Positions 33,169 to 53,988 of a stretch of DNA of 64,000 nucleotides are shown in pieces (position 1 is the first letter of the stretch; every line of letters begins with the position of its first letter). This stretch comes from Candidatus Omnitrophota bacterium. GTDB taxonomy: Bacteria; Omnitrophota; Gorgyraeia; S143-82. The notes beneath the pieces are model-generated. The model saw only the letters and a program-made list of their open reading frames with translations, ran no database searches and was not told where the DNA came from. The position numbers were made by a program, and so were the translations under genes. Location: the NCBI GenBank assembly GCA_015494465.1, contig WGBD01000002.1, positions 197,267-261,266 on the forward strand. The letters run 5' to 3'.

Positions 33169-33462
33169 TTACATCTGCAGGCGCATCAGTTCCTGATAGG
33201 CGTCTATCAACTTGTTGCGGATCTCCATCATGGTCATAAAGGCCAGGTTCGCCTCCTCCACCGCGACCAGGACCTGGTGGATGTCCTTGACCTGGCCCTT
33301 GGCGAGTTTCTCCATGGCGTTCTCTGCGTTCAGCTGGAGCTGGTTCACCTTATCTATACTCTCTTTCAGGATGGAGGCAAAGTCAACATCTCCGGAGACC
33401 TTTCCCGAGGGCTTAGGGGTCAAGGGCCCTATACCACCAACTCCAATCTTATCTATCGCCAT
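33169..33462 (-). CDS. fliE: flagellar hook-basal body complex protein FliE
   Basis: 97 aa with FliE-family C-terminal helices. SD GAGGTGA upstream. Confidence 0.8.
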   Translation of the reverse strand: MAIDKIGVGGIGPLTPKPSGKVSGDVDFASILKESIDKVNQLQLNAENAMEKLAKGQVKDIHQVLVAVEEANLAFMTMMEIRNKLIDAYQELMRLQM

Positions 33463-33468
33463 ACCTCA

Positions 33469-33867
33469 TCACCTCAACATGTCCAGCGTCCTTATGTAGT
33501 TCTGCTTCTGCAGGTTGAAGGCTGCGATGTTCGCCTCGTAGGCTCGGGAGGCGGTTATCATCTTCGTCCACTCCTCTACCAGATTTATCCTCGGATAGTG
33601 GACATAACCGTACTGGTCCGCATCGGGGTGGTCGGGATCGTACACCAGACGATAGGAATCCTGCTCCTGTATCCCGATAACCCTTACCCCCTGGGCATCG
33701 GGGGCGCTCTGGAGGATCACCTCCTGCCGTTTATAAGGCCCTCCTTCCGGGGTGCGGGTGGTGTTGATGTTGGCCAGGTTGTTGGCGTAGGTCTCTATGC
33801 GCCGTTTCTCCGCACGCAGACCACTCACCGATATCTCCATCCCGGAAAACACGCTGGAAACCTGCAT
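33469..33867 (-). CDS. flgC: flagellar basal-body rod protein FlgC
   Basis: Start at ATG 33865-33867 (MQVSSVFSGMEISVSGL...) with SD GAGGTG upstream. Conserved N-terminal rod motif ANNLANINTT. Confidence 0.85.
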   Translation of the reverse strand: MQVSSVFSGMEISVSGLRAEKRRIETYANNLANINTTRTPEGGPYKRQEVILQSAPDAQGVRVIGIQEQDSYRLVYDPDHPDADQYGYVHYPRINLVEEWTKMITASRAYEANIAAFNLQKQNYIRTLDMLR

Positions 33868-33894
33868 TATCACACCTCGTCCCGCCTAGTTATT

Positions 33895-34275
33895 CTATTC
33901 CGGCCTACCTCTTATTATACTCTCGAACAGGTCAAACCGCGACCTCAAAAGTTGGACCATGGACTGGTAATCCATGGAATCCTCGGTAATCTTCACTAAT
34001 TCTTCGTCCAACTCCACCGGCCTGCCCGTGTCCTTTATCGGAATCTTTTCCAGGCCCGGCGAAGAGATTCGTGCCGGGATGTGGCGAGGGTTGGTCCGCT
34101 CCAGCTCCAAGCGCATCTGCTCCTTCTCCAAGACCTTGGCAAAGTCCACCCGCTTAGCGGTGTATCCGGGGACATTCACATTGGCGATGTTGTTGGCCAA
34201 CACCTTGATCTCCCGGGAAAGGACCGTCATACGATCTACCACTGCGGACTCTGTCTTACCTACGAACATACCCAT
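33895..34275 (-). CDS. flgB: flagellar basal-body rod protein FlgB
   Basis: Start at ATG 34273-34275 (MGMFVGKTES...) with SD AGGAGGG 5 nt upstream. The upstream track extension is spurious. Confidence 0.8.
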   Translation of the reverse strand: MGMFVGKTESAVVDRMTVLSREIKVLANNIANVNVPGYTAKRVDFAKVLEKEQMRLELERTNPRHIPARISSPGLEKIPIKDTGRPVELDEELVKITEDSMDYQSMVQLLRSRFDLFESIIRGRPE

Positions 34276-34298: not shown

Positions 34299-34314
34299 TG
34301 CAAAATGCGTGCCA
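34299..34314 (-). promoter_or_regulatory. sigma-54 (RpoN) -24/-12 promoter for flgB-flgC-fliE
   Basis: The minus strand reads TGGCACGCATTTTGCA, a perfect match to TGGCAC-N5-TTGCA. It lies ~25 nt upstream of the flgB start. Confidence 0.6.
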
Positions 34315-34359: not shown

Positions 34360-35301
34360 ATGAAGACATCCAAAAGAGCAACCGAGATCGCCTTAGTTTT
34401 TATCCCCTTGGGTGCGTTATTCTTTTACCTCTCCTCCAAACACCTGGTCACCGCAGATGTAAACCTATACTACGACATCGGAAGGAACCTCCTATCCCTC
34501 AAACCCTACTGCAGTTTTGACATCTACGCAACCAGCCCTGAGGCCTACTTCCCTGCCCTGCCCTTCACTGCACCCCTCTGGCCATTGGTGGCTGGGATAA
34601 GCATAAGGCTCCTTGGCACCTACGGGCCGTGGATGATCAACCCACTGCTCTTGCTCGCAAGCGCCTTCGTCTTTTACCGGATAGCCCACAGATTCCTCGC
34701 CCATGAACAGGCCCTGATGGCAACCGCCTTGGCCTTTACCTCCCTGCCCATACTCCTGATTGCAATGTATCCTTGGACGGAGACCCTGGGCCTACTCCTA
34801 TTGCTGCTAATAGTCCATCAAGTCCTCTCCGGGGCCCGGCCCCTCCACACCGGCCTGTTATTGGCCTTGGAGGGTCTAACCCGACCCCACTACCTCCTGC
34901 CCGCCCTGATAATCACCGCCATTTGGAGCAAGCGAAAAAGGGACCTTTTGACCGCATTACTGACCAGTGCAGTCTTGCTTCTCACCTACGAGGGAGTGTG
35001 TCTGGTGCTTTGGAAACTGCCCTACCCCAGTATGTACCTATTGCCCCTGAACAACTTCTCGCCTCCGATTGGCAAGACAGATCTGGGGGAGGCAGTGATA
35101 GGCTACCTACACACATTAAAAGACCTCCTGCTCAACACCCCAACCCTCCCAATAGGAGTCCTTGCCCTTCTCCTCGGATTCTGGCTCAAGCAGGCCCAAG
35201 GGCTGGACGGACGGGTAGTAAAACTCCTCTGGACCTATCTGGTATTGGTCGTTACCTATCCCGTTTTATTCCTGATATTGATCCTCAAGGGGGTATGGTA
35301 G
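34360..35301 (+). CDS. polytopic integral membrane protein (~9-10 TM), possibly the N-terminal part of a GT-C/ArnT-like glycosyltransferase
   Basis: 313 aa, very hydrophobic. It ends at TAG 35299-35301, overlapping the next ATG. Confidence 0.45.
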   Translation: MKTSKRATEIALVFIPLGALFFYLSSKHLVTADVNLYYDIGRNLLSLKPYCSFDIYATSPEAYFPALPFTAPLWPLVAGISIRLLGTYGPWMINPLLLLASAFVFYRIAHRFLAHEQALMATALAFTSLPILLIAMYPWTETLGLLLLLLIVHQVLSGARPLHTGLLLALEGLTRPHYLLPALIITAIWSKRKRDLLTALLTSAVLLLTYEGVCLVLWKLPYPSMYLLPLNNFSPPIGKTDLGEAVIGYLHTLKDLLLNTPTLPIGVLALLLGFWLKQAQGLDGRVVKLLWTYLVLVVTYPVLFLILILKGVW

Positions 35302-35744
35302 TGAGGTTGCTTCCCATAGACACCATACGATTTGCCTCCCTCCACGCACCGTTCGCCATCCTCATCGCAATGGTACTCGTATCCAAGGTCCGCAACCGCC
35401 TGCTTCCCAACATACTGACGATACTCCTGTGCCTGTACTCTGCCTACTCTCTCATCGCATCCATCCTCATCTCCCAGATACTAGCCACTAAACAGAGACC
35501 CGGTTATCTCTTCGTCGAGAAGATACGCCCTTACCTCCGATCCCAAGAGGTCATTTGCAGCCAGGACATACAACTGCCCTGGTATCTGGTAGACAATCCC
35601 GTAGGAAAGGTCTCTCGGGATAGACAAGGAGAATACCTGCAGTGGAAAGGCTGTAAAGCCCTGGTCATAAGGAGGGAAAAGGGTCAGTGGGTCCTCTTGA
35701 AACCCAAGGAGTACGGGAAGGACACCAAATCATCCCCTAAGTAA
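35295..35744 (+). CDS. membrane protein (3 TM plus soluble C-terminal domain); may be a continuation of the preceding gene
   Basis: ATG at 35295 (MVVRLLPIDTIRF...). ATGGTAG overlap with the upstream gene. Different frame. Confidence 0.4.
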   Translation: MVVRLLPIDTIRFASLHAPFAILIAMVLVSKVRNRLLPNILTILLCLYSAYSLIASILISQILATKQRPGYLFVEKIRPYLRSQEVICSQDIQLPWYLVDNPVGKVSRDRQGEYLQWKGCKALVIRREKGQWVLLKPKEYGKDTKSSPK

Positions 35745-36874
35745 TCTCCCTCGCACAACACGACCGCCCGGTGGATGCAGTTCTCCAGTTCCCGCACATT
35801 GCCCGGCCAATCGTAGTCCAAAAGGACCCTCATAGCGGAGTCAGTGATGCCCTTTATCTCCTTGCCCACCTTCTTGCTATACCGACGGAGAAAGGCCTCT
35901 GCCAACAGGGGGATGTCTTCTTTCCTTTCCCGCAAGGGCGGGACATATATAGGCACCACATTCAACCTAAAGAACAGGTCTTCCCGGAACCTTCCTTCCT
36001 TCACCTCCTGGGCCAGATCCCGATTGGTGGTAGCCACCACCCTCACATCCACCTCGACAGGGGAACTTCCCCCTATCCTATCCACCTCTCCCTCCTGAAG
36101 GACCCGCAACAACTTCGCCTGCAGGTGGAGGGGCATCTCCCCTATCTCGTCCAAAAGTATCGTTCCCCCGTGGGCGAGTTCAAACTTTCCCTTGCGGGTG
36201 TAGACCGCTCCGGTAAAGGCCCCCTTCTCGTGGCCAAACAACTCCGCTTCCACGAGGGTATCGGGTATTGCCGCGCAGTTCACCCTCACATAGGGCCCAT
36301 CTGCCCGCTGGCTCAAGGCGTGGATCCTGCGGGCGATTAATTCCTTCCCCGTACCGGTCTCACCCATTATGAGGACCGTCGCATCACTGCAGGCAATCTT
36401 CTCCAACTCCCTTTTGAGGGCCCTTATAGGAGCGGACTCCCCTATGAACTCCTCCCCCACCTCCGACTGGCACCTAACCAGTTCCTTCAACCGGACATTT
36501 TCCTCTTTCAGCCTGTGGGCCTCCAGGGTCTTCTCCACCACCACCTCAAGTTCGTCGGCGGAGAAGGGCTTCATGATGTAATCGCTGGCGCCCTTCTTCA
36601 TGGCGGTCACCGCGGTGTCCACCGTTCCGTAGGCGGTAATCATTATCACCGGCAGGTTGGGGAATTTCTCCTTCACCTTCTCCAGGAACTCTATCCCCGA
36701 CATCTCGGGCATACGCATGTCGGTAATCACCAGATCGCAACCGCCCTTATCCAAAAGGGAAAGCCCCTTCTTCGGCGAATTCACCGCCCTAACCTTGTGG
36801 CCCGCCTCCTTAAGGACCATCCTCAAGGACTCCAAGACCAGATCGTCGTCGTCCACGACTAATATGGAAGCCAT
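35684..36874 (-). CDS. sigma-54-dependent response regulator lacking a C-terminal DNA-binding domain (FlgR-like)
   Basis: Start at ATG 36872-36874 ([11 protein letters not shown]), with SD GGAGGT. REC domain plus AAA+ sigma-54 activator domain ([21 protein letters not shown]). The protein ends ~25 aa after the AAA+ domain. No Fis-type HTH. Confidence 0.8.
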
Positions 36875-37686
36875 ATAACGACCTCCGCCCCTTTTTCCCA
36901 ATTCCCGAACTCCACCTCTCCCCCGTGGGCCTCCACTATCCGGCTGGTTATCGCCAGCCCCAACCCGGTCCCTTTGGTCTTAGTGGTGAAGAAGGGCTCG
37001 CACAACCTTCCCATCACCCCTTCGGGGAATCCCGGGCCGGTATCCCTTACGGATATCCCAACCCTGCCTCCCCTCACCTCGCAGGACAACCAGATCTGAC
37101 CTTTATCCCCAACCGCATCCACCGCGTTGTCCAATACATTCAACAGGGCCCTCTCCAGATAATCCGGATCCGCGGAGAACCTCACCTCCTCGTCGGAGAC
37201 GGAAAGGGTTATATCCTTGCCCTCCAAGGCAGGGACCAGAAACTTCTGCATCCTTCGGGAAAGGTTCCGCCAGGAGACCTGCACCTTGTTGAGGGATATG
37301 TCCTGGGCGAAGTTCAGGATGTCCCCTATTATCGACTCCATCCTATTAACGCCCGCCCGGATGTTCTCTATCAGCTCCCTCGCACCCGGATCTCGAACCT
37401 TCTTCTCCAACATAGATACCGACAAGGAGATCCCTGCCAGCGGATTCCTTATCTCGTGGGCAAGGGTGGCCGCCATCTCCCCGATGGCTGCAAGACGCCG
37501 GGAACGCTCCAACTGCTCGGTAAGCTCTGCGATCCTGCGCTCCAGGACCGCGTAGTACTCTATCAACTCCGCGCTGGTCTTGGAAAAGGCGTCAAAGGCC
37601 TTTATCAGCTCCTCAGGTGGGGTCTCTCTTGCCAGATCACCGCCGGCGATCGACGAATCTGGCCTCTTTACCGGTTCCCTTTCCAT
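36859..37686 (-). CDS. cytoplasmic sensor histidine kinase (FlgS/FleS-like)
   Basis: 275 aa, no TM segments. HisKA H-box LAHEIRNPLAGI. HATPase_c N/G boxes. It overlaps the regulator start by 16 nt. Confidence 0.75.
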   Translation of the reverse strand: MEREPVKRPDSSIAGGDLARETPPEELIKAFDAFSKTSAELIEYYAVLERRIAELTEQLERSRRLAAIGEMAATLAHEIRNPLAGISLSVSMLEKKVRDPGARELIENIRAGVNRMESIIGDILNFAQDISLNKVQVSWRNLSRRMQKFLVPALEGKDITLSVSDEEVRFSADPDYLERALLNVLDNAVDAVGDKGQIWLSCEVRGGRVGISVRDTGPGFPEGVMGRLCEPFFTTKTKGTGLGLAITSRIVEAHGGEVEFGNWEKGAEVVIWLPY

Positions 37687-38068
37687 AGTACGCCTTCACC
37701 GCCTTCTTGCCCGCGTTCACCTGGGAAAGGTCCGCCTCCAGACGATCCTTACTTTTCTGGACCTGTTCCACCAACACCCCTTCCAACTCCAACAGCCTCT
37801 TCACCACCGCCTCTATCTCCTCGAAAAGGGCCGCGATCCTCTCCTTTTCCTCTCTAGGGAGATCCCCCCGATTTTGCTTCCACCACATCTTCAGTTCGGC
37901 GAGCCTGTCGTCTATCGACTGTATCTTCAATACCAATTCTTGCTTTTTCTTCAGGGCAGAGAACAAAAAATCCACATCCCCGCCCCGTTCCACCTGCTGG
38001 TTGGAGATCTCCAGCATCTGCCTGTACAGGTCCAGTTCCTCCTCCAGCCCTGCTATCAGGGCCACCAC
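37637..38068 (-). CDS. small coiled-coil protein, FlgN-like/flagellar chaperone-like (tentative); start uncertain
   Basis: Candidate GTG starts at 38065/38068 or the ATG at 38017. Sequence ...LVLKIQSIDDRLAELKMWWKQ...EEKERIAALFEEIEAVVKRLLELE. It overlaps the kinase start by 50 nt. The longer track ORF overlaps the upstream TPR gene. Confidence 0.35.
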   Translation of the reverse strand: MVALIAGLEEELDLYRQMLEISNQQVERGGDVDFLFSALKKKQELVLKIQSIDDRLAELKMWWKQNRGDLPREEKERIAALFEEIEAVVKRLLELEGVLVEQVQKSKDRLEADLSQVNAGKKAVKAYYGKGTGKEARFVDRRR

Positions 38069-38076
38069 CTCTTTAT

Positions 38077-41000
38077 TCACTTCTTCAACTCCTCCAAAAG
38101 CTCCTTTGCCTGATCCAGTTTCTGCCGGATCTGGGCCTCGTTCTTCTGCCAGTGGGCCTCCTTCGCCCATATGCTATCCGGGTACTTCTCTATAACCGCG
38201 TCGAAGTAGACATTCGCCTTGCCGATGTTCCCCTGCATCTTGTAGCACATCCCTATCTGATACAGGACCCAATCCGGGACATCCTTGCCTTTGTCCTCGT
38301 ACACCTGCTTGATCTTCTTGTACATCTTCAAGGCGCTCTTAAAGGCCCCCATGCGGTAATTGGTGTCTGCCAGCTTCAGCAAGGCATTCATTATAGCATC
38401 GAAGGCCTCGGGATCCTTACCCCCTATTTTTAGAGAAATCCTGCCGCCTACATCCTTCAGATCCGCGTCGTAATAGCGGAGCAGACGGGTCAGATACTTG
38501 GCGTACAACTTGACCGCAGGACCGTAATCGCCCTTTCCCACCAAGGCATCCGCCTCGAGTCTCAACAGCTCCGTGAGGCGCTCCCAGTCCGTGGTCAAGG
38601 CCCGGGCGTTCTTGAAGGCCTCGTAGGCCTCCTCGTACTTCTCCAAGCGCATGTAGATCTTCCCCAAGGACTCCCAGGCCAAGGCCTTTAGGGCCCTGTC
38701 GCCCAGAAAGCGGTTCCTGGCTATGCGTTGGTACTGATCTATCGCCTCTTGGATCTGGCCTGCCTCTTCGTAGGTCCGTCCCAGCATGTACCTGCACTTG
38801 AACCTCCAAGGACTCAAGGGAGAACTGCGGATAGCATCTTTGAAACTCTCTATTGCCTTGGCATAATCTTGGTTATAAAAATAAGCAATGCTGAGACGGT
38901 ACATGATCTTGCCCCTGTCCAGGGCCTTGTACTTCTTGAATTCGGTAAGCACCCCAACGAAGACACCAATCGCCTTCTGATACTCGCCTGACCGCAGTAG
39001 GGCATCTGCCTTGGCGAGGTATATCTTGAGCCTCAATCTCTTCTCGTCTTTGGGGATCTTTCTCAAGAGCTTGTCGTAGACCTTCACCGCGGAGATGTAG
39101 TCCCCTCCCAACTCGTACATTCTCGCAAGGTACCAATAGGCCTTCCTTACCTCGGGGTAGTCGGGATACTTCTCTACCAGCGTCCGCAACCACCTCTGGG
39201 CATCCTTGAACCTGACTTGATGGGCCAAGGTCTGGGACAAGAGGAACAAGGCAGAGGGAAGTTTCTCCCACTTGTAAAACCTCTCCTTTAGATCGTACAA
39301 TAGGCGCTCCGCTCGCTTGAAGTCCCTCTTCTCAAAGGCAAGGAGCCTGGCAGCGTCGTAAAGGGCCTGCGCAGACAACTCGTCGTACTTAAACCTGGTC
39401 GCCAACTCGATGTAGGTATCGATTGCGGAATCGATGTCTCCTTTCAGTTCGTAGGCCTGGCCCTTCCTCAACAACAGCTCTGGCAAGAGGTCCTTGGGCA
39501 GATCCTGCTCAGCCGCGCTGTAGACCGAGATCGCCTTGTCGATCTGCCCCGACTTTATCAAGGCATCCGCATAGCGGAACAGGACCTCGGAAAGGTGGGG
39601 ATCATTCTTATAGTCCTCAATGAACAACGGGGCGGTCTCTATTATCCTATCCCAACGCTTATCCTCGGTATACCACCTAACCAATTCGTAGAGGGCCAAG
39701 GGCCGGTAGGGGCTACTGCCTTGCTCCTTAATCAACCGCCACAACTCCTTTTCAGCGGACTCCTCGTCACCGCTGTGCTTGTAGGACAGGGCCAGATAAT
39801 ACCTGGCCTCGTCTATCATGTTGGAGAACGAGAACCTCTCCAAGAACTCCTTGTAGTGCTGGATCGCGGTAGGATAGTCCCCCATTCTATAAGCACTGTG
39901 GGCGATCCGCAAGAGTGCCTTTTCCTTGTTGAGCATCCTGGGAGAGTGCTCGTAGGCAAATCGATAATACTCCATCGCCTTTGCGTACCTCTCTTCTTCC
40001 GGGAGATCTGCCCGCTTATCGAAAAAGGCATCGCCCAATACTATACTGGCATCGTCCAGGAACTTGCTATCTGGAAAGCGGGTCTTGAGTTCCTGAAATA
40101 GATCCTCCGCGGTGGCGTAGTTCTCCTTCTCCACCATCTTATACATCAGGGCAAACAGGTCCGAATCGCTGTAGCCAGCGAATTGGCGGGACTCGGTGGC
40201 CGTGGGTTCCTTCTTGGAAACGGACAAAAGCCTGACCACCCCGATAGCGATCAACAAGAAGGACAATAAGGATAAGGCAAAGATACCATAGGCCAAGAGC
40301 GGAGGGAACGCAGGCACTGCCTTGCTCTCAGATGGAGATGACTCTTGGGAGGAAACATCCTGCACGGTCTCGACCGGAACTGCGGAATCGGTTATCTCTG
40401 TAGAGGGGACATCCTGAGGGACCTCTATGTCCTTGTTGGTATCTACGACCTCTTCCTTTATCTCTACTTCGTCTATGCTTATCTTCTCTTCCGAGGACTG
40501 CTCTTTTTCAGAGGAAGCCGACGGCGCAGGGCCCTCTCCCAGCAGAAGGGCGCGTTCGTCCCCCACGCCCTCAGGGACCTCTTCGCCACCTGGAATCTCC
40601 TCCTGCGCCGTCTCTTCCTCACCCCCCTTTGTGCTACTGTCAACAGCAGCCTCTTGGTGCGGAGAACCCTGCACCTCTCCGACATCCTCAGCGGTCCCTA
40701 CCTCTTCGACCTCGCTCTTATCACCTCCTTCCTCCTTTGCCTCTTCGGTGCCTTCCGTTTCCTCTCTGCCCTCTCCGGACTCTGGTTTGGCCTCCGCCTC
40801 CCCCTCGGAGGCCTCCCCCTCTGCCTCTGAAGTCTCCTTTTCCTTATCACTCCGGCCCTCGTCTTCTAAGACCTCTTTAGGGCCTTTATCTTCCTGCTCC
40901 CCTTCGTTCTCCCGTTTCTCCTCTTGCCCTTCCTCCTCTTCTGGCGCGGGTTCCTCTCCCACCGTCTCTCCCTGCCCCGCAACCCTATCTTCTCCCTTAT

Positions 41001-41217
41001 CCCCTTTCGCCTCCTCCCTTTCCTCCTCAGGCTGGGCAGACTCCGGACCCCCTGCCTCTATCTCAACCCCCAAAAAGTCCTTTATCCCAGCCACTACTTC
41101 GGGAGTAAGTTCTATCTCGTCGTCGCCGGTCAACTCCTGTCCCACTACCACGCTGATGGCGCAGGAGAGTTCGGTCAGGTCCAGATTGTACTTCTCCGCC
41201 AGTTCCCTTAACTTCAT
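38077..41217 (-). CDS. 1046-aa membrane protein: N-terminal SAP/HeH-like segment, ~250-aa acidic low-complexity linker, one TM helix, ~700-aa TPR-repeat domain
   Basis: N-terminus MKLRELAEKYNLDLTELS. Linker E/G/K-rich. TM helix AFPPLLAYGIFALSLLSFLLIAIGVV. More than 15 TPR-like repeats. Translationally coupled (ATGA) to the upstream MerR gene. Confidence 0.6.
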   Translation of the reverse strand: MKLRELAEKYNLDLTELSCAISVVVGQELTGDDEIELTPEVVAGIKDFLGVEIEAGGPESAQPEEEREEAKGDKGEDRVAGQGETVGEEPAPEEEEGQEEKRENEGEQEDKGPKEVLEDEGRSDKEKETSEAEGEASEGEAEAKPESGEGREETEGTEEAKEEGGDKSEVEEVGTAEDVGEVQGSPHQEAAVDSSTKGGEEETAQEEIPGGEEVPEGVGDERALLLGEGPAPSASSEKEQSSEEKISIDEVEIKEEVVDTNKDIEVPQDVPSTEITDSAVPVETVQDVSSQESSPSESKAVPAFPPLLAYGIFALSLLSFLLIAIGVVRLLSVSKKEPTATESRQFAGYSDSDLFALMYKMVEKENYATAEDLFQELKTRFPDSKFLDDASIVLGDAFFDKRADLPEEERYAKAMEYYRFAYEHSPRMLNKEKALLRIAHSAYRMGDYPTAIQHYKEFLERFSFSNMIDEARYYLALSYKHSGDEESAEKELWRLIKEQGSSPYRPLALYELVRWYTEDKRWDRIIETAPLFIEDYKNDPHLSEVLFRYADALIKSGQIDKAISVYSAAEQDLPKDLLPELLLRKGQAYELKGDIDSAIDTYIELATRFKYDELSAQALYDAARLLAFEKRDFKRAERLLYDLKERFYKWEKLPSALFLLSQTLAHQVRFKDAQRWLRTLVEKYPDYPEVRKAYWYLARMYELGGDYISAVKVYDKLLRKIPKDEKRLRLKIYLAKADALLRSGEYQKAIGVFVGVLTEFKKYKALDRGKIMYRLSIAYFYNQDYAKAIESFKDAIRSSPLSPWRFKCRYMLGRTYEEAGQIQEAIDQYQRIARNRFLGDRALKALAWESLGKIYMRLEKYEEAYEAFKNARALTTDWERLTELLRLEADALVGKGDYGPAVKLYAKYLTRLLRYYDADLKDVGGRISLKIGGKDPEAFDAIMNALLKLADTNYRMGAFKSALKMYKKIKQVYEDKGKDVPDWVLYQIGMCYKMQGNIGKANVYFDAVIEKYPDSIWAKEAHWQKNEAQIRQKLDQAKELLEELKK

Positions 41218-41546
41218 TGCCCATCGCTCGCTTCACCCTTTTTCCGCTCGCTGTCGAACTCCTGCTCCAAGATGTCCCGTATCTGCAACAGACTGTACCC
41301 TTGTGCCTTCAACTCCTTTATCCGCTTCAGGCGGGGGAAGACATCCTCCCCGTAAAGCCTGTGCCCCGAGGGGGTGCGAGAGTGCTCTTTTATCAACCCT
41401 AACTGAGTGTAGTTGTGGAGGATCTGACGAGAAAGCCCGGTGTAGTACATCACCTCGCCGATCTTGTAGAGCTTGGGAGGGATGAGCACATCGTCCGGAG
41501 ATCCCGGTGGTTGGTTTTGCAAGTTATCTTTTTCGTTATTCAACAT
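41214..41546 (-). CDS. MerR-family transcriptional regulator
   Basis: ATG at 41544-41546 (MLNNEKD...). The track start at 41564 is a TTG. HTH KLYKIGEVMYYTGLSRQILHNYTQLGLI. The stop overlaps the start of the next gene. Confidence 0.7.
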   Translation of the reverse strand: MLNNEKDNLQNQPPGSPDDVLIPPKLYKIGEVMYYTGLSRQILHNYTQLGLIKEHSRTPSGHRLYGEDVFPRLKRIKELKAQGYSLLQIRDILEQEFDSERKKGEASDGQ

Positions 41547-41605: not shown

Positions 41606-41740
41606 TTTTTTGTATTGTATCAGAAAAATTGTCTAATACCAAAAATTTTTTCTCTTTTACGATATACATTTTATGAATTGTAAAAATAAAGCGCAAAGGC
41701 TAGTGAGGCAACTTAAAAGGCTGGAATTGGCCTGTACTAG

Positions 41741-42421
41741 CTACCTTCTCCTGCGCCGGAAAGAGAAGAGGACGGGAAGGGCGAGCCCCAACAGGGACAG
41801 CGAAGCGGGTTCGGGGACGATCCCTTGCAGGCCCCCTTCACCCTTTTTGGCGAGGATCCAGGCGGAGGTATAGGGGTCGCTCACCGCGTCGTCCGCAATA
41901 TAGCCCTTCTTTCCTCCGTAGGTATACACATTCCCCGACATGGTAGAATAAGAGGTGATCCTGTATATGTACCGCCTAGTACTCGGCCCAGTCCCTGAGG
42001 CCACATCAGCGATCCTGCCTATCCAGTACCTGTAATAGGTCATACCCGAGAGCTTGTCCCTAGTGTAGGGGAATACCGACCAATCCTCGTCTATCACTGG
42101 GACGAGGGTAGCGACCTCATCTTCCCTCGCTAGGCGCCACGATCCGTACCCTGAAAAGTCGTACCCGCTTACCGCCATCTCACTTGCAGGGACTATGGCA
42201 TCCAAGATAGACTGGATGTCAAACAGCGTCTTCTGGGTAAAGAGGCCCAGATTCCGCAACCACACCACCTCGTTGGTGTCGTCGTAGACCACGCTTAGCT
42301 GTCTTCCGTTATAGATAAGGTTGGAGGGCGTTAAGATGGCTATCGAGGCATAACCTGTTAGCACCACCCCACTGAGCAACCAGACTGCCACACCCACGGA
42401 GGAAAGCACCAACCTCTTCAT
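41741..42421 (-). CDS. PEP-CTERM sorting-domain protein (exosortase substrate)
   Basis: 226 aa with a signal peptide. C-terminus VPEPASLSLLGLALPVLFSFRRRRR, i.e. PEP motif, TM helix and Arg cluster. Confidence 0.65.
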   Translation of the reverse strand: MKRLVLSSVGVAVWLLSGVVLTGYASIAILTPSNLIYNGRQLSVVYDDTNEVVWLRNLGLFTQKTLFDIQSILDAIVPASEMAVSGYDFSGYGSWRLAREDEVATLVPVIDEDWSVFPYTRDKLSGMTYYRYWIGRIADVASGTGPSTRRYIYRITSYSTMSGNVYTYGGKKGYIADDAVSDPYTSAWILAKKGEGGLQGIVPEPASLSLLGLALPVLFSFRRRRR

Positions 42422-44572: not shown

Positions 44573-45159
44573 TCCCGAAAGGGGCGGAAAAAGGGATGCG
44601 TAGCTAAGGCGAGCATCTCCCTGTCACCCCTGGAATCCCCGTAGGCGTAGATCTCGTCGTATTGGGATAGATCGAAGACCTCCCGAATCCTCCTCGTCTT
44701 CTCTGCCCCGTAACAATTCTTGCCCAAGATCTTCCCGGTAACTATCCCGTCCCTTTCCTCTAACTCCACCCCGATCACCCTTCGTATCCCTACCCCCTTG
44801 GCCCAGGGCCGGAGATAAACCTCCAAAGAGGCAGAAACGATCGCCACCTCGTCCCCTCTAGACTGATGCCAGGTTATTCTATCTAACGCCTTTGGTCTTA
44901 CCAAGGCAGGCAACCGCTCCTTCGCGAACCTCTGCCCCAAATCCGCCACCTCCTTTAGGGTCCTGCCAGAGAGGGTAGCGGTAAGTACCCTTTCCTTTAC
45001 GCTTTGATTATCAACCAACCCCAAGAAGTATCCGAGGAGATAAGGCCACTGACCCAATAAGCGAGGATAGAAATCCCACCCCAATGCATAGCGCAAGAAC
45101 TCAGAGATACTCTCTCGATAGGTAATAGTACCGTCGAAGTCAAAGAGGGCTAGATTCAT
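44569..45159 (-). CDS. HAD-superfamily hydrolase (subfamily IB-like)
   Basis: 196 aa. Motif I LFDFDGTIT. Distal Asp motif YGDSRGD. Confidence 0.65.
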   Translation of the reverse strand: MNLALFDFDGTITYRESISEFLRYALGWDFYPRLLGQWPYLLGYFLGLVDNQSVKERVLTATLSGRTLKEVADLGQRFAKERLPALVRPKALDRITWHQSRGDEVAIVSASLEVYLRPWAKGVGIRRVIGVELEERDGIVTGKILGKNCYGAEKTRRIREVFDLSQYDEIYAYGDSRGDREMLALATHPFFRPFRD

Positions 45160-45394
45160 CCGGTCCGGCTCTCTTGTTTAGGAGCTCACTGATCTCCTCT
45201 AAGGAGAGCTCGCTCTCTGCAGATACGAGGTTCTCGTTCCTTATCTGCTCGAATATCTCTTTTCTATAGACCGGGATCGAGGCGGGAGCCTTTATGCCCA
45301 ACTTCACCACCTCTCCCCTTACATCGAGAACGACGACCTCCACATCGCTCCCGATCATTAGGCTCTCCTGTTTCTTCCTGGTCAATACCAGCAT
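45140..45394 (-). CDS. csrA: carbon storage regulator CsrA
   Basis: 84 aa: MLVLTRKKQESLMIGSDVEVVVLDVRGEVVKLGIKAPASIPVYRKEI. Classic CsrA. Confidence 0.9.
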   Translation of the reverse strand: MLVLTRKKQESLMIGSDVEVVVLDVRGEVVKLGIKAPASIPVYRKEIFEQIRNENLVSAESELSLEEISELLNKRAGPDESSPL

Positions 45395-45847
45395 CTATCC
45401 TACAGCCTCTTCTTCCCGCTGGGTCTCTACTCTAAGGACCTCAAACTGGAGAGGATACTCTTCAGGATCGAGAACTACTTGCTTGGCCTTTTTGTTAATC
45501 CTATTCACCAGTATAGGGCCTTGCAGGTTAAGCGTCACCCGCAAGGGATTCTTCCTAATAGAGACCAACACCCATATCTCTCCGTTTGACAGCTCGGTAA
45601 GCCCGATGTCCTCCAGCTGACTCCTATGGAGTCGGATCTTGTAATCGGGAACGAACACCAAGGGATTCGTGATTACGAAGGCCAAGGCGGGATTCTCTAC
45701 CGACTGCATCCAATAAAAAGGGCCGTTGTCCTCTCGCAATATCACATACCTGCGCTCAGAGGGAAAACCCAGTATTCCCTGGGGGAAATCTATTATCTCA
45801 TCCTTGGATATCCTTATCTCCCCAAACCTCGTGGTGTGGATCTTCAT
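45395..45847 (-). CDS. fliW: flagellar assembly factor FliW
   Basis: 150 aa: MKIHTTRFGEIRISKDEIIDFPQGILGFP. FliW family, directly upstream of csrA. Confidence 0.9.
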   Translation of the reverse strand: MKIHTTRFGEIRISKDEIIDFPQGILGFPSERRYVILREDNGPFYWMQSVENPALAFVITNPLVFVPDYKIRLHRSQLEDIGLTELSNGEIWVLVSIRKNPLRVTLNLQGPILVNRINKKAKQVVLDPEEYPLQFEVLRVETQREEEAVG

Positions 45848-45877
45848 AGCCTAATCCTTTCCTCAAATATTCTACCC

Positions 45878-47104
45878 TTACTTCAGAAAATCTAAAAGGG
45901 ATGGTTGAATGACGGTAGTTAAGGACTTTAAGAGAGATTGGTATATGTTTTGCTCCTTCGTCAGCTTCACCGTCACATCTGCCATGTCCGCATCTTCCAC
46001 TTCGGAAAGGAGATTAGTTATGTTCACCAACTCACTGTCCAATTTGGATCGCGTCATCTCCAGTCTTTGGGCACGAGTCCCCACCTCAACCCAGGCCTGC
46101 AAGGCCTTGTCTATGACGGAGTCTATCTCTCCTGCCACCTGAAGGATCTTATTTGCGTCGTTTCCCTCCAACCCCTCTTTTAACCTCAACAACACCCCAA
46201 ATATGTCGTCGGATTCATCTAAGCCCACTATGCCCAGATCCTGGGCGGTCTGGGTACTCTCTACCGACAAGGTCGTTCCACTCACGGTGGAGCGAAGATT
46301 TATACCCGTACCCGCCTCGTTTATCTCCGCAACCACATTTATACCCGCAGAGTTTATTGCATTGAGGACATCGCCTACCGTGTCGGTAGGATTTACCGAT
46401 ATAGTAGCGGTTTGATTGCCATTGTGTATAATTACCGTCCCAGCGTGGACTCCGCTACCTGAATTGAAGGTAGACAACAGAGTAGTTTCGGTGATAGGGG
46501 TTACGGTTGCATTCACATTGGCTCCCCTTATCATCGTCTGGGGATCGGCAAAGATGTTCCTCCCAATCTGATTCAACTGCATCTGGATCCCCTTGCTGAT
46601 CTCCACATACATCGCACCTTCGTCGCCGTTGTACCTGACGACCTCCTTGCCCCCCACGATTTCCCGAGTAAAAGGCTGGGTCCGAGTACGATATCCGCCG
46701 AATATGTACCTATTGCCATGCTTGGTATTGGCCAACTGCACTATCTGGCCTATTATGCTGTCGACCTGCAGGGCTGCACTCCTGCGGGTCTGTTCGTCTG
46801 CGGAATCGCTCCCCTGCTCAAGGGCTATGGCCTTGGCGTTGTTCAACAACTGGGTAACATTAGAGAGGGCGGTATCCGCAACCGACATCCAGGACTGGGC
46901 GTATCCAATGTTGCTTTGATACTGGGCTATGTCGTCGAGCTCTTTTCGATATAAGAGATCCTGGGTCACATCTGCAGGGGCGTCTGAAGGACGATTGATC
47001 CGCTTACCCGTAGCGATCTGCTCCTGCAGGCGTATAAACCGATCAAAGGCCAAGGTGAGATTGCGGTAGGCCTTCTCGTATATCATGTTAGTGGATATCC
47101 TCAT
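45878..47104 (-). CDS. flgL: flagellar hook-associated protein 3 FlgL
   Basis: 408 aa with flagellin-like N- and C-terminal helical domains. N-terminus MRISTNMIYEKAYRNL. Confidence 0.8.
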   Translation of the reverse strand: MRISTNMIYEKAYRNLTLAFDRFIRLQEQIATGKRINRPSDAPADVTQDLLYRKELDDIAQYQSNIGYAQSWMSVADTALSNVTQLLNNAKAIALEQGSDSADEQTRRSAALQVDSIIGQIVQLANTKHGNRYIFGGYRTRTQPFTREIVGGKEVVRYNGDEGAMYVEISKGIQMQLNQIGRNIFADPQTMIRGANVNATVTPITETTLLSTFNSGSGVHAGTVIIHNGNQTATISVNPTDTVGDVLNAINSAGINVVAEINEAGTGINLRSTVSGTTLSVESTQTAQDLGIVGLDESDDIFGVLLRLKEGLEGNDANKILQVAGEIDSVIDKALQAWVEVGTRAQRLEMTRSKLDSELVNITNLLSEVEDADMADVTVKLTKEQNIYQSLLKSLTTVIQPSLLDFLK

Positions 47105-48807
47105 CCCGCCACCTCGTTTATCAGGATGTCCAAGAGCTCGTCAACCGCGTTGATGTACTTCGCCGCTGCCTCGTAGGCCCGCTGGAACCGCATGAGGTTC
47201 ATCGCCTCTTCGTCAAGTGAAACCCCGGAGATCTCTTCTATGCTGTTCTTGATGTGCGTAATAAGGGTCTCCTGGGCCTCCTTCATGTTGTCTGCCTCTC
47301 TCTTATCCACTCCCATCATGCCCAGGGTAGAGGCATAATAGTCGTATATCGTAGCAGATCCTCCCTCCATTAGATCTGCATCCTTAAGCCTTGCGATAGC
47401 TATGGCATTGTTGCCGTCACCGATTTCCCCAGAGGCCGAGGCGGAGATGTACTTCACATTGCTGGCGATCGGATCGCTAACCGCAATAGTACCTGCAGAG
47501 TTGCCTTTGAAGAAGACATTCAATCCTAAGGCAGTCAAGGCCCCACTGCCATCCTGATTGAGGAAGAACCTATATCCGTCTTCTGCCTCAACATGGAGGT
47601 GGCCATCGCTATCTAGGTAGGCCCTGAGATGGGATATACCACTGGAGAAATCCGAACCTATAGCAGTGATTATGTCGTTTGCACTGGTCCCACCCGCACC
47701 ACTGGTAATGCTAATGGTATTGGCGGAGAGGGTATTCCCCGCGGTGTCCTTGACCGTGATCACGAACGAGCCATCCGAGACCACATCGTAAAAGTCCAAC
47801 CCGCTATCGCTGCTGCTGATACTCGCGTCTGCATCCTGCAGGGCATAGCTAGATGTCAAGGAGCTGAAGCCCTCCAATCCCCATCCTTGGGTGTGCTGTC
47901 GGTTGACCTCCACTATGAGGGTCCTGGCTATCTGATTAACCCTATCTAGGTAGGCAGGTATTTTTACATCTCTGGCTATCATAGCGCCCTTTAACTTGCC
48001 AGCGCGGGCCTGGACCGGAGCATTGTTCATCTCCCATATGGGAACTACGTGTCCCTCTTCGTTATAACGGTAGGTAATCGTCGTCGCAGAGACCCTATCT
48101 ACCAGATTCACCCCACCAACGCTTACCAAGACCGTTCCGTCGGGCTGTTCCTCGGTGGTGAAGTCTATCAGTTCTGATAGCCGTCTCAACATCTCGTCCC
48201 TCTGATCGCGAAGATCGTTAGCGACGAAATCTCCTACCTCGTAGAACCTGATCCTGTCGTTAAGGGAGGCGATGTTGCTGGCTAGGCTGTTTATTTCCTG
48301 GATGTAGGCCTTTATGGCCTCGTCCGCGTCGTACCTGAGCCCTTGTATCTTTTCGTACAACATGTTTAGGTGTGCGGTTAACATCTCCGACTGGTGCAGC
48401 ACATTGCTCCGCGAGGTCTGTTCTTCGGGCGTAAGAGAGAGGTCTTCCCATCTACCCCAAAACTCTGACAACAACTTGTTCAGACCCTCGTCTGAAGGCT
48501 CGTTAAAGTAGAGTTCCAAGCGCGACAAAAACTTCTCTATCTCCTCCCACTGCCCCAATAGCTTGGTCTCGTTGCGCAATTGTATGTCCAAAAAACCCTC
48601 TCTTATCCTGGCTATACGGGCAATTTCTACGCCGGTCCCCTTGACTCCCCAGGGAGTCAGATCGGGCAATGCCTCTACTAACTCCACCCTCTGACGGGAA
48701 TAACCAGGGGTATTGGCATTGGCTATGTTATGGCCAGTGGTCTCAAGGGCCAGTTGGGCAGCCCGCAATGCCCTTATACCTGCGGTAAATCCGGAAAATC
48801 CTCCCAT
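47101..48807 (-). CDS. flgK: flagellar hook-associated protein 1 FlgK
   Basis: 568 aa. N-terminal rod/hook motif GIRALRAAQLALETTGHNIANANTPGYSRQ. Confidence 0.85.
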   Translation of the reverse strand: MGGFSGFTAGIRALRAAQLALETTGHNIANANTPGYSRQRVELVEALPDLTPWGVKGTGVEIARIARIREGFLDIQLRNETKLLGQWEEIEKFLSRLELYFNEPSDEGLNKLLSEFWGRWEDLSLTPEEQTSRSNVLHQSEMLTAHLNMLYEKIQGLRYDADEAIKAYIQEINSLASNIASLNDRIRFYEVGDFVANDLRDQRDEMLRRLSELIDFTTEEQPDGTVLVSVGGVNLVDRVSATTITYRYNEEGHVVPIWEMNNAPVQARAGKLKGAMIARDVKIPAYLDRVNQIARTLIVEVNRQHTQGWGLEGFSSLTSSYALQDADASISSSDSGLDFYDVVSDGSFVITVKDTAGNTLSANTISITSGAGGTSANDIITAIGSDFSSGISHLRAYLDSDGHLHVEAEDGYRFFLNQDGSGALTALGLNVFFKGNSAGTIAVSDPIASNVKYISASASGEIGDGNNAIAIARLKDADLMEGGSATIYDYYASTLGMMGVDKREADNMKEAQETLITHIKNSIEEISGVSLDEEAMNLMRFQRAYEAAAKYINAVDELLDILINEVAG

Positions 48808-48808
48808 A

Positions 48809-49285
48809 TCACGCCCTCAGGTTATACACCCTCCCAAAGGTCCTCTCCTTCTTCCCCGTACAGCTGTAGCCTACGAAATCGAGCGAGGCAAACATCCCTA
48901 TCAGCTCTTCAACATAACACAACACGGTCCTCACGGTGTAACGCATCAGCCTGCTTTGGAGACGGATGTCTTCCAATACCTCCTTTAAGCGATCCTGCAG
49001 GTGTCTAAGGCCATTCCTTTCCTCGGGAGGGGCCATCCGTATCAGGTCTGACAACCTATCCGATCCTGCCAGACCAACACCTTTTCCCAATCGCCTACAG
49101 ATCTGCACTCTCTCTGCCTCCAGTTCCCGCAACCTCTCCTGTATCTTGGCCTGCATGCCGACAGTTTTCTCCAAACTATCCACATCCCTCTTAACCAAGG
49201 CCTCTTTGACCTTGCCGAGGGTCTCCCCAAACTCCTTGTATAGGCTCAATTGCTGGGTCAGTATTCGCTTTAGTTCCTTCCACAT
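48809..49285 (-). CDS. flgN: FlgN-like flagellar export chaperone
   Basis: 158 aa, helical. Immediately upstream of flgK, the classic position. Confidence 0.5.
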   Translation of the reverse strand: MWKELKRILTQQLSLYKEFGETLGKVKEALVKRDVDSLEKTVGMQAKIQERLRELEAERVQICRRLGKGVGLAGSDRLSDLIRMAPPEERNGLRHLQDRLKEVLEDIRLQSRLMRYTVRTVLCYVEELIGMFASLDFVGYSCTGKKERTFGRVYNLRA

Positions 49286-49323
49286 CCCGCTCTCGACCTC
49301 CTAACCACCTTATCGTCTCTCTT

Positions 49324-49620
49324 CTACCGCTCCTTTACCAAAAACTTCTCCATAGACCTGTAAACCAGATCCCCCAACCCCAAGACCGAGCGTTGAGACA
49401 AATAGCGTGACAACTCCAAGTTTTTTATGTCGCGGTAGATCTCTTCCCCCTCCCCACCAAACAAGATGTCAGCGGGTCCTAATCCCTTTTCCATCTCCTT
49501 CAATAACATATACACAAACATCGATTCTACCTCCTTAGAGGCAGCCCTCAAGCGTTGAGACTCACTCCCCCGCACCTCTAAAGTAGATAGATTTAAACCC
49601 AGGCCTAATACGCTATTCAC
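49324..49620 (-). CDS. rod-binding protein (FlgJ N-terminal domain homolog, no glucosaminidase domain)
   Basis: 98 aa. Rod_binding motif EVESMFVYMLLKEMEK. Confidence 0.6.
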   Translation of the reverse strand: MNSVLGLGLNLSTLEVRGSESQRLRAASKEVESMFVYMLLKEMEKGLGPADILFGGEGEEIYRDIKNLELSRYLSQRSVLGLGDLVYRSMEKFLVKER

Positions 49621-49629
49621 ATCCCCTCC

Positions 49630-50727
49630 TCAAATAATCACCAACTCTGCAGAAAGCGCCCCTGCGGACTTTATCGCCTGGAAGATGGATATGATGTCTC
49701 TGGGGCTTACCCCCAAGGCATTCAAGGCAGAGGCAAGGGTCCCGACCGTCGGCGTAGAGTTCACCACGACCATCTTCCCCTCTTGCTCCACCACCTTTAC
49801 CCCGTTCTGGGGCATCACCTCGGTAGACCCCGCGGACAAGGGCATCGGCTGGGATACCAACCACTGGGACTTCACCTCTATAGAGAGGCTTCCGTGGGAT
49901 ATCGCAACCGTATCTATCTTCACATCCTTGCCCGCAACGACCGTACCGGTGCGCTCGTTTATCACCACCCGGGCATTCACATCCGGCTCTACCTTCACCT
50001 GCTCCAGCAGGGAGATGAAGTCCACTGCGGAATCCCTAAACTCCTTCGGCATCTGCACCATAACCCTCGAGGCAGAGATGGGATGGGCTATCTTCCCCCA
50101 CTGCTCGTTTATCGCCTCTGCAAGTCTGGAGGCAGTAGTAAAGTCGGGCTGATTCAGTGAGATTATCACCCTATCCGTATGCACGAACTCCACTGGTATC
50201 TCCCTTTCCACGATCGCGCCGTTTGGGATGCGACCTACCGTGGGATGGTTCTTCTGGGTCTTGCTCCTGCCCTGTCCGGCGCTGTAGCCACCCAGAGAAA
50301 GGGGGCCCTGGGCCACCGCGTATACCTTCCCATCCGGTCCCATCAACGGGGTCATCAACAGGACCCCGTTGGAGAGATCCGTCGCATCCCCGATAGAGGA
50401 TACCAGACAGTCTATTTTCGTGCCCGGGGTAACGAAGGCAGGGATCCTTGCAGTAACGACCACCGCTGCGACATTCTTCATCTTGATGTCCTTGGGGGAT
50501 AGGTTTATCCCCATCTCCTTCATCATGTTAGCAATGGCTCGGGAGGAAAATATTGCAGAGGACTTATCCCCGGTCCCGTTGAGGCCTACCACCACACCGT
50601 AGCCTATCAGCTGGTTCTCCCTTACCCCTTCTACGCGGGCTATGTCCTTCAAGCGCACGGAGTAGACACCTGCTTGGGACAGGGAAGTCCCGAGCAACAC
50701 CAACGAGAGTACCAACCACCTCTTCAT
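49630..50727 (-). CDS. flgI: flagellar P-ring protein FlgI
   Basis: 365 aa with signal peptide. Motif GYGVVVGLNGTGDK. Confidence 0.9.
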   Translation of the reverse strand: MKRWLVLSLVLLGTSLSQAGVYSVRLKDIARVEGVRENQLIGYGVVVGLNGTGDKSSAIFSSRAIANMMKEMGINLSPKDIKMKNVAAVVVTARIPAFVTPGTKIDCLVSSIGDATDLSNGVLLMTPLMGPDGKVYAVAQGPLSLGGYSAGQGRSKTQKNHPTVGRIPNGAIVEREIPVEFVHTDRVIISLNQPDFTTASRLAEAINEQWGKIAHPISASRVMVQMPKEFRDSAVDFISLLEQVKVEPDVNARVVINERTGTVVAGKDVKIDTVAISHGSLSIEVKSQWLVSQPMPLSAGSTEVMPQNGVKVVEQEGKMVVVNSTPTVGTLASALNALGVSPRDIISIFQAIKSAGALSAELVII

Positions 50728-50742
50728 CGTATCGTCACCCCT

Positions 50743-51399
50743 TTAGAACAACCACGCCAGATCGAAGAACCACTCCAGCAACCCCTTGTTATTCTGCTTA
50801 TCACCGAGCGTGCCAAGGCCCTTACAACTGATCTTGGCATTGGCAATGCGGGAGGATTCCACCGTGTTGTCCGAAGTAATGTCTTCGGGTCTAACCTCTC
50901 CGGTCAGGGTTACATACTGCCTCTCCCCGTTTATCTCTATCTCCTTCTGCCCTTCGATAACGAAGACCCCATTCGGCAGGATGTCTATTATCTTTGCGGA
51001 CATCTTGGCCACGAACTTCTGGGAACGGGTGGTCTTGCCCTTGGACTTGTACTCGTGAGAGGCGCTCGTGTCTATCTTGGGCAGATTCGCGTTGGGAAGG
51101 GAATAGGCCTTTACATCCGGGAGGATCCCCAAGCTATTCAATATTACTTTAATCCAACTCTTCACCTCGTCCTTTATGGTGGTCTCCCGCTTGGTCTTGG
51201 TGTCCGCGTCCGTCTCTGCGGTTGAGGTCTCGGTTATAACGATAGTGAGGATGTCCCCTATCTGCCTTGCCCTCCTGTCCATAAACATGGAGCCCTTGCC
51301 CATACGCTCTCTCTCCATCCACAAGGACCCTGCAATCCCTTCTCCTGCGAAAATCAAGGTAAAGACCAAGAAGACCATAGACAACCCTATCCTCTTCAT
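50743..51399 (-). CDS. flgH: flagellar L-ring protein FlgH
   Basis: 218 aa with signal peptide. Motif GDILTIVITE. Confidence 0.85.
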   Translation of the reverse strand: MKRIGLSMVFLVFTLIFAGEGIAGSLWMERERMGKGSMFMDRRARQIGDILTIVITETSTAETDADTKTKRETTIKDEVKSWIKVILNSLGILPDVKAYSLPNANLPKIDTSASHEYKSKGKTTRSQKFVAKMSAKIIDILPNGVFVIEGQKEIEINGERQYVTLTGEVRPEDITSDNTVESSRIANAKISCKGLGTLGDKQNNKGLLEWFFDLAWLF

Positions 51400-52331: not shown

Positions 52332-52334
52332 AGA

Positions 52335-53132: not shown

Positions 53133-53142
53133 CTCCGCTTAC

Positions 53143-53916: not shown

Positions 53917-53988
53917 AAGAAATGAGAGGATACCAATTTAAGGTCAATTTAAGGTAAGGTAAAGGCGAGGAAGTAAGAAATCAAAAAC

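Follow-up and report, generated by a model that had tools for sequence, protein, structure and literature searches.

A probable flagellar two-component system with a sigma-54 activator that lacks a DNA-binding domain in an uncultured Omnitrophota lineage

Very few sigma-54 activators are known to do without a DNA-binding domain, namely FlgR, Chlamydia CtcC, and R. sphaeroides FleT, and the absence of the helix-turn-helix (HTH) domain defines a "type Ic" subgroup comprising FlgR and CtcC (PMC3162934). The FlgR protein of H. pylori lacks a DNA-binding domain and switches on transcription independently of an enhancer (PMC3930126). In Helicobacter and Campylobacter, FlgS-FlgR systems consist of a soluble kinase and an activator with a receiver (REC) and an AAA+ domain, with sigma-54 promoters on rod and hook genes (PMC3930126, PMC3760246). 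Chlamydia CtcB and CtcC have the consecutive locus numbers CT467 and CT466; CtcC is a REC-AAA+ protein of 386 amino acids (aa) with no DNA-binding domain and is closest to AtoC (PMC7482065). Polar flagellates widely possess flagellum-linked two-component systems that drive the sigma-54 promoters of flgB, flgF, and flgK operons (PMC7064773). Here, we analyze a stretch of 64,000 nucleotides (nt) from contig WGBD01000002.1 of the Candidatus Omnitrophota bacterium assembly GCA_015494465.1, referred to below as the window, in which a histidine kinase (HK) gene overlaps a gene for a response regulator (RR) of the sigma-54 activator type. We consider it quite likely that these two genes form a working, naturally minimized flagellar two-component system. 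If so, they provide another clear case of a sigma-54 activator without a DNA-binding domain, from a distant uncultured lineage.

35684..36901, minus strand: open reading frame (ORF) of the RR, from the ORF list
36859..37686, minus strand: HK, a soluble, sensor-less histidine kinase of 275 aa, with Pfam HisKA and HATPase_c domains

The likeliest start of the RR gene is the ATG at 36874, which has a GGAGG 8 nt upstream and yields a protein of 396 aa (35684..36874, minus strand). A preliminary description of this DNA had read the protein as a REC domain followed by an AAA+ sigma-54 interaction domain with a GAFTGA motif, and the Pfam matches agree: Response_reg at residues 4-113 (8.5e-32), Sigma54_activat at 144-309 (4.1e-72), and AAA_lid_14 at 315-380. 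The protein contains a Walker A motif (GETGTGKE at 171), GAFTGA at 218, and a Walker B motif (LLDE at 239), as well as the REC residues Asp8-11, Asp52 (the phospho-acceptor), Thr80, and Lys102. It has the REC and AAA+ features of the response-regulator class of sigma-54 enhancer-binding proteins; the Fis-type HTH expected at the C-terminus (PF02954) is missing, with no HTH_8 match in Pfam even at E ≤ 0.1. The chain ends 16 aa past the AAA_lid domain and 33 aa past the GNVREL motif, in keeping with the roughly 25 aa past the AAA+ domain first estimated. The best match among solved structures is A. aeolicus NtrC1 (1NY5; 372 bits over residues 3-380, spanning REC, linker, and AAA+); for the AAA+ domain, NtrC1 scores 288 bits and the FlrC AAA+ domain (4QHS) 272 bits. 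The match to NtrC1 suggests an NtrC1/DctD-type mechanism, in which a dimer of unphosphorylated REC domains would keep the ATPase off.

A conserved N-terminal helix (residues ~25-60) opens the HK, followed by a DHp domain containing His77 and by a CA domain in which the N, G1, F, and G2 boxes are present. Pfam places HisKA at residues 69-128 and HATPase_c at 173-274 and reports no PAS domain; the H-box reads HEIRNP at 77, and the N-terminal helix carries the motif L-x2-AF-x2-F-x6-L-x3-Y-x2-L-x2-R-x2-EL. No transmembrane segment was found in the HK, as had been claimed, the highest Kyte-Doolittle mean over 19 residues being 0.78. The kinase stop codon (36859-36861) lies past the RR start at 36874, which gives the 16-nt gene overlap first reported. 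HK and RR are the last two genes of a five-gene operon, all on the minus strand, in the order merR-like, TPR, FlgN-like, HK, and RR, with successive overlaps of 4, 4, 50, and 16 nt. All orthologous loci that we fetched (L081-L088) contain the five genes in this order; the more distant loci L089-L092, where the identity of the FlgN-like protein to that of the window is only 24 to 29%, keep the same order starting with the TPR or FlgN-like gene. One of the orthologous loci comes from a hydrothermal metagenome set.

35295..35744, plus strand: convergent gene of 149 aa, membrane-like, with no family match, from ORF calls; shares 61 nt with the 3' end of the RR gene

We searched 5.8 billion proteins with the RR, numbering the matches from P0001, which is the window RR. 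The search returned a tight group, P0001-P0014, with 61 to 100% identity, in which each protein is 394 to 397 aa long and none has PF02954. Matches below this group (≤57% identity) are approximately 450 to 470 aa long and nearly all have PF02954; two exceptions, P0038 (399 aa) and P0056 (395 aa), are short. Altogether, the set without an HTH comprises 17 clusters at 61 to 100% identity and 2 at 47 to 52%, approximately 19 in total, all 394 to 399 aa long and from different samples. These clusters stop 30 to 34 aa past GNVREL, where their HTH-bearing neighbors mostly have 80 to 120 aa, and in the alignment the short regulators end 8 to 12 residues past the point at which the long ones run into the linker and HTH. 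A scan of genome contigs with the RR recovered mostly generic NtrC-family genes, and none of its 80 loci was an orthologue without an HTH; locus L028 was rejected as a short RR, its contig ending there. These loci did serve to identify HTH-bearing relatives of the module, described below.

The short C-terminus could also be an assembly frameshift artefact, or the RR gene a decaying pseudogene. The window is from a metagenome-type assembly, and the related locus L008 has an in-frame stop within its regulator gene, both of which are in favor of such an explanation; on the other hand, the end point is common to ~19 clusters from different samples, and the catalytic motifs are all intact, in the HK as well as the RR. 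A separately built assembly of the public run SRR10312501 differs from window positions 31571-38266 by 2 mismatches and 0 indels, and its gene calls agree (147, 275, and 396 aa). No HTH is readable in any of the three frames of the DNA 3' of the RR gene, where the convergent gene occupies the sequence; this gene marks the boundary of the system, lies outside it, and leaves no space for an HTH exon. Thus, no hidden C-terminal HTH behind a frameshift emerged from the three frames, the second assembly, or the orthologues. Because the orthologues share an end point, the second assembly is free of indels here, and a convergent gene lies downstream, we take the truncation of the RR to be natural and find an artefact or pseudogene hardly credible. 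In a neighbor-joining tree of the REC and AAA+ cores, built without support values, the window clade (17 tips) and the pair L089/L090 each form a monophyletic group, yet the two are not exclusive sisters; the tree fits a single loss of the HTH between these groups as well as two losses.

34299..34314, minus strand: sigma-54 promoter (-24/-12) TGGCACGCATTTTGCA of flgB-flgC-fliE, exact consensus
33169..34275, minus strand: proximal rod genes flgB (33895..34275), flgC (33469..33873), and fliE (33169..33462), by Pfam Flg_bb_rod, Flg_bbr_C, and FliE
53901..53916, minus strand: sigma-54 promoter TGGCACGGTATTTGCA of the flgF operon, exact consensus
45140..53877, minus strand: flgF-flgG-flgA-flgH-flgI-flgJ-like-flgN-flgK-flgL-fliW-csrA, by Pfam for each ORF

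The promoters in the window match this kind of activator. The exact sequence TGGCAC-N5-TTGCA occurs twice in the 64 kb, compared to 0.01 occurrences expected from shuffles, and both copies are on the coding strand and end 24 nt 5' of a start codon (flgB at 34275 and flgF at 53877), so the two perfect sigma-54 promoters noted earlier before the flgB and flgF operons stand. We predict that flgB-flgC-fliE (126, 132, and 97 aa in public gene calls) is a target operon of the RR. The genes from flgF to csrA appear from their tight spacing to be a single operon, a predicted second target; the flgJ-like gene between flgI and flgN encodes a rod-binding protein, and csrA (45140..45394) was assigned from its sequence and from the FliW-CsrA gene order in L081 and L087.

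L082 11193: sigma-54 box, 5 nt past the RR stop codon
L083 11187: sigma-54 box, overlapping the RR stop codon
L085 7549: sigma-54 box, overlapping the RR stop codon
L089 2724: sigma-54 box AGGCAC-N5-TTGCA, after a hairpin
L081 12540: sigma-54 box, before fliE
L082 17807, L083 18015, L085 14145: sigma-54 boxes, before LysM-fliK-flgD-flgE genes

The flagellar setting extends from the flg and fli genes of the window to its relatives. In L082, L083, L085, and L089, the RR gene is followed directly by flgB-flgC-fliE-fliF-fliG-fliH-fliI-fliJ...flgE, and GG-N10-GC boxes are kept at the junction of the RR stop and the flgB start. Sigma-54 boxes were found at flgB, flgF, fliE, and the LysM-fliK-flgD-flgE genes, rather than before non-flagellar genes only. 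These observations bear on a further explanation, that the pair is an ordinary metabolic system of the AtoSC/NtrBC type, near flagellar genes by chance, with another activator serving flgB and flgF. The top NCBIfam matches are indeed AtoC for the RR (467 bits) and AtoS for the HK (181 bits) rather than flagellar families, and P0020, the nearest of the HTH-bearing relatives examined, comes from a locus that is not flagellar. Every AtoC and AtoS score is below its cut-off, however, as are those of NtrC and ZraR; a sigma-54 box stands at the end of the RR gene in four lineages, and the pair stays linked to flgB or fliE, as well as to a FlgN-like gene, even though the FlgN-like proteins have diverged so far. 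A metabolic pair is, in our judgment, quite improbable.

Three further features of the promoter regions are recorded here. The LysM-gene boxes of L082, L083, and L085 lie ~30 to 45 nt inside the annotated 5' end, reflecting either miscalled starts or promoters within coding sequence. In L083 and L085, a Shine-Dalgarno sequence for flgB would exist only on transcripts reading through from the RR operon. Within the window, a near-consensus box with one mismatch, TGGCAG-N5-TTGCT (42375-42390, minus strand), falls within a PEP-CTERM-motif gene (41741..42421, minus strand), ~30 nt from its annotated start, which suggests that the gene truly starts later and is another sigma-54 target, one that is not flagellar and would require a different activator.

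L014 and L047, Nitrospinota metagenome-assembled genomes (MAGs): TPR, PAS-kinase, regulator with HTH, sigma-54 box, flgC-fliF-fliG
L008, Planctomycetota MAG: TPR, FlgN-like (tblastn 3e-10), PAS-less kinase, regulator with HTH, fliE-fliF
L009, Chitinispirillales MAG: TPR, weak FlgN-like, PAS-kinase, regulator with HTH
L052, Chlamydiota MAG: FlgN-like (22.6 bits), PAS-kinase, regulator with HTH

Loci in several other phyla place the window pair in a wider context. The HK N-terminal helix motif also occurs in PAS-containing kinases encoded beside HTH-bearing regulators in L014, L047, L052, and L093. Judging from these sequences, the window pair belongs to a broader flagellum-linked module and is reduced twice over, the HK having lost the PAS domain present in its nearest relatives and the RR its HTH. 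The in-frame stop in L008 (3283-3285) replaces the Glu of GNVRELEN, after which the frame runs into a normal HTH; it represents a sequencing error, a recent nonsense mutation, or recoding.

The DNA upstream of the promoters differs between loci with and without an HTH. In the window, a divergent start codon is 45 nt upstream of the flgB -24 box, and the flgF -24 box has a tRNA-Ala(CGC) gene (53988..54062, minus strand) ~70 nt upstream, so that hardly any space is left there for an upstream activating sequence. Among the loci without an HTH, the -24 box begins between 8 nt before and 79 nt after the RR stop codon; the two Nitrospinota loci with an HTH place 155 and 199 nt of non-coding DNA between these two elements (L014 11362-11517 and L047 11353-11552, respectively). 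Loss of the HTH therefore goes together with collapse of the upstream enhancer spacer, from 155 to 199 nt down to between an 8-nt overlap and 79 nt, a pattern that lends indirect support to activation without an enhancer. The spacers of L014 and L047 contain repeated TTGTCAAA-like words, candidate enhancer sites of which none was seen in the HTH-less lineage.

41214..41546, minus strand: MerR-like small HTH protein of 110 aa from its ATG, first gene of the operon, by Pfam MerR_1 (8.3e-12)
41614..41642, minus strand: candidate sigma-70-type promoter TTGGTA-17-TACAAT, TG-extended, by consensus scan; in the AT-rich spacer 5' of the merR-like gene

An RR without an HTH might be brought to DNA in trans, either by the MerR-like protein or by forming a hetero-oligomer with a second, HTH-bearing sigma-54 activator. 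There is precedent for a domain-poor activator of this kind in R. sphaeroides FleT, which works with FleQ (PMC3162934), and the merR-like gene is conserved at the operon head in L081-L088 and L092. In NCBIfam, however, the MerR-like protein reaches none of the cut-offs and matches ZntR, CueR, and HspR only in their N-terminal HTH and dimerization helix, and a protein made of these two parts alone corresponds to regulators of the sigma-70 type. A palindrome before the merR-like gene, TTTGCCAAAGGCAAA (41551-41565), was considered as a shared operator and rejected; it is unique in the window, not near the sigma-54 promoters, and not conserved in relatives. Neither the window nor the related loci examined encode a second activator, and the HTH-bearing loci L009, L014/L047, and L052, as far as examined, have no MerR-like gene directly 5' of the TPR or FlgN-like gene. 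We regard targeting in trans as unlikely. The 3' end of the merR-like gene overlaps the TPR gene start by 4 nt, and the 41614..41642 element, identified by its consensus match, is the probable start of the five-gene operon. Similar TTTACT...TACAAT elements, and no sigma-54 box, occur 5' of the merR-like gene in relatives; the corresponding spacer of the window also has no sigma-54 box.

37637..38080, minus strand: FlgN-like protein of 147 aa, by Pfam FlgN (32.4 bits)
38077..41217, minus strand: TPR protein of 1046 aa, by Pfam TPR families

Between the merR-like gene and the HK lie two genes of particular relevance to sensing. The FlgN-like gene starts with a GTG within a GTGA overlap on the TPR stop codon, and its 3' end overlaps the HK start by 50 nt; in all contexts examined, the FlgN-like gene is followed by a histidine kinase gene. 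The protein passes the gathering threshold of PF05130 (32.4 vs 30.5 bits), and 8 of 8 orthologues match this family (best 1.5e-9). The subfamily is rare, a profile search of the 5.8 billion proteins having returned 13 proteins only. An AlphaFold2 model is an all-helical bundle (pLDDT 84.5) for which Foldseek found generic helical bundles in PDB, none at E < 0.1, and hhalign gave a probability of 2% for the profile against the canonical FlgN of the window; the name FlgN-like thus follows the Pfam match. That canonical flgN gene (48809..49285, minus strand; Pfam 1.9e-17) lies between flgJ-like and flgK, so the window contains two FlgN-family genes. The FlgN-like protein has an invariant C-terminal tyrosine, Tyr131. 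The docking of Salmonella FlgN to FlhA depends critically on its Tyr-122 (PMC8527033), to which Tyr131 may correspond.

The TPR gene is kept directly 5' of the FlgN-like gene in relatives. Its product consists of a short N-terminal helical domain, an acidic low-complexity stretch (84 Asp/Glu and 22 Lys/Arg among the 245 aa of residues 56-300), one hydrophobic segment (residues ~307-325, Kyte-Doolittle 2.5), and ~700 aa of YbgF/BamD-like TPR repeats. NCBIfam matches are tol_pal_ybgF over 8 stretches (163 bits) and BamD (100 bits), indicating YbgF/CpoB- and BamD-like repeat modules. Given the single hydrophobic segment and the acidic N-terminal region, the protein could span the membrane. Topology cues conflict, with positive residues C-terminal to the hydrophobic segment and YbgF/BamD-like repeats that suggest the periplasm. 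In a PDB sequence search, the TPR protein matched generic or designed TPR proteins only; flagellar scaffolds such as PflA and PflB were not among them.

We propose the following mechanism for a minimized flagellar two-component system. The five-gene operon would be transcribed from the sigma-70-type promoter as an early flagellar class. The HK, whose domains are seen and whose activity we infer from its families, would autophosphorylate on His77 and transfer the phosphate to Asp52 of the RR. By homology to NtrC1-type activators, phosphorylation would free the AAA+ domain for ring assembly, and from what is known of the family, GAFTGA would contact sigma-54 and ATP would drive promoter opening. 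The targets would be the observed sigma-54 promoters of flgBC-fliE and flgFG..., together with the hook-gene promoter seen in relatives, all presumed to depend on the RR. Lacking a DNA-binding domain, and facing promoters with hardly any free DNA upstream, the RR most likely works from solution and needs no enhancer, as H. pylori FlgR does.

Because the kinase has no sensor domain (no PAS and no membrane segment), its input is more likely to come from a partner protein than from a small ligand. The most useful lead from this analysis concerns how soluble flagellar kinases such as FlgS sense assembly (PMC3930126) and what CtcB senses (PMC7482065). In the loci examined here, genes for a FlgN-like protein and a putative TPR membrane protein always accompany that of the sensor-less HK, and these proteins are concrete sensing candidates; as inputs to the HK, the two proteins are the obvious, if speculative, choice. 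A more detailed version is tentative and, taken as a whole, somewhat doubtful: the HK might be controlled by the FlgN-type export-chaperone paralogue and the bitopic TPR protein, with its probably periplasmic YbgF/BamD-like domain, and the status of flagellar export or envelope assembly might be read through protein-protein contact with the conserved N-terminal helix of the HK. The same TPR/FlgN-like/kinase/regulator module seems to serve flagellar control in several phyla, among them relatives of the CtcBC system, and its most reduced version would be that of the window lineage, without PAS, HTH, or enhancer spacer.

Several points weigh against this interpretation of the pair and its mode of action. 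The pairing of HK with RR is assumed from the gene overlap, and the 64-kb window contains no rpoN gene to go with the promoters, nor flhA or flhF. In L083 (11187-11215) and L085 (7549-7579), the sigma-54 box ends 12 to 14 nt 5' of the flgB start, which would produce a nearly leaderless transcript and is unexplained. The fliF and fliG genes of the relatives lie 3' of flgB-fliE in the same gene string, and a simple C. jejuni-like checkpoint of MS ring first, then rod, may not apply. It is also possible that the RR uses an upstream site in neighboring coding DNA, or a DNA-binding partner.

Other features of the window complete its description. Two membrane-like genes without a family match (313 and 149 aa; 34360-35744, plus strand), the second being the convergent gene that overlaps the RR, are inserted convergently between RR and flgB in one sub-clade only. 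The pair is also called in L081, L087, L088, and L094, with the second gene overlapping the RR 3' end by 36 to 61 nt. The FliW-CsrA pair (45140-45847, minus strand) at the end of the flgK-flgL string indicates post-transcriptional control of flagellin of the Bacillus/Campylobacter type. A scan for sigma-28-type promoters found none adjoining flagellar genes. The minus strand carries nearly all genes of the window (1-64000), and every 2-kb bin has a negative GC skew, which fits a single replichore arm. The DnaE protein of the window has relatives at 63 to 100% identity, and the matches next in line, at ~55%, are almost all from Candidatus Omnitrophota, which suggests a placement near this group. 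A type II secretion/type IV pilus-like cluster (secretin, T2SSE ATPase) is located at ~6886-10450.

The resemblance to FlgS/FlgR of Helicobacter and Campylobacter, which the preliminary description had proposed, holds for architecture, setting, and promoters and fails for family membership. Like FlgS-FlgR, the window pair combines a kinase free of transmembrane segments with a REC-AAA+ activator, and its rod genes are under sigma-54 boxes. Against the FlgR model (NCBIfam NF049963), however, the RR scores 349 bits with a cut-off of 750, and FlgR ranks 12th behind AtoC, NtrC, NtrX, ZraR, and other models. The HK scores 88 bits against the FlgS model (NF049962, cut-off 600) and matches only model positions 124-327, the catalytic core; its N-terminus is unmatched, and it is ~60 to 100 aa shorter than FlgS. 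Unlike FlgS and FlgR, the window genes overlap and close a five-gene operon with FlgN-like, TPR, and MerR-like genes, and the relatives of the window have MS-ring and rotor genes downstream of the sigma-54 promoter. The best functional reading, by analogy, is that the window pair works like Helicobacter FlgS/FlgR while standing outside that family. Given that the RR has no specific similarity to FlgR by model scores, the comparison argues for a loss of the HTH separate from that of Campylobacterota FlgR.

Chlamydia CtcBC and the flagellar systems of Vibrio and Pseudomonas complete the comparison. Like CtcC, the window RR has no DNA-binding domain and matches AtoC best, and in the Chlamydiota locus L052 a FlgN-like, a PAS-kinase, and a regulator gene follow one another in the order of the window, with the same kinase N-terminal helix motif. 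The likeness to CtcBC is one of architecture and of this single Chlamydiota MAG locus, whose regulator keeps its HTH, and CtcBC, unlike what we propose for the window pair, governs developmental and type III secretion genes rather than flagella. The genes for Vibrio FlrBC and for Pseudomonas FleSR lie side by side; the FlrB/FleS kinases carry PAS and the FlrC/FleR regulators carry a DNA-binding HTH. The linkage of kinase and regulator genes had first been presented as a difference from Helicobacter and Campylobacter; because CtcBC, FlrBC, and FleSR are also neighbors, this adjacency is ordinary. In its predicted flgB and flgF operon targets, the window pair resembles the flagellar sigma-54 systems FlrB-FlrC and FleS-FleR, and it differs from them in having an HK without PAS and an RR without an HTH.

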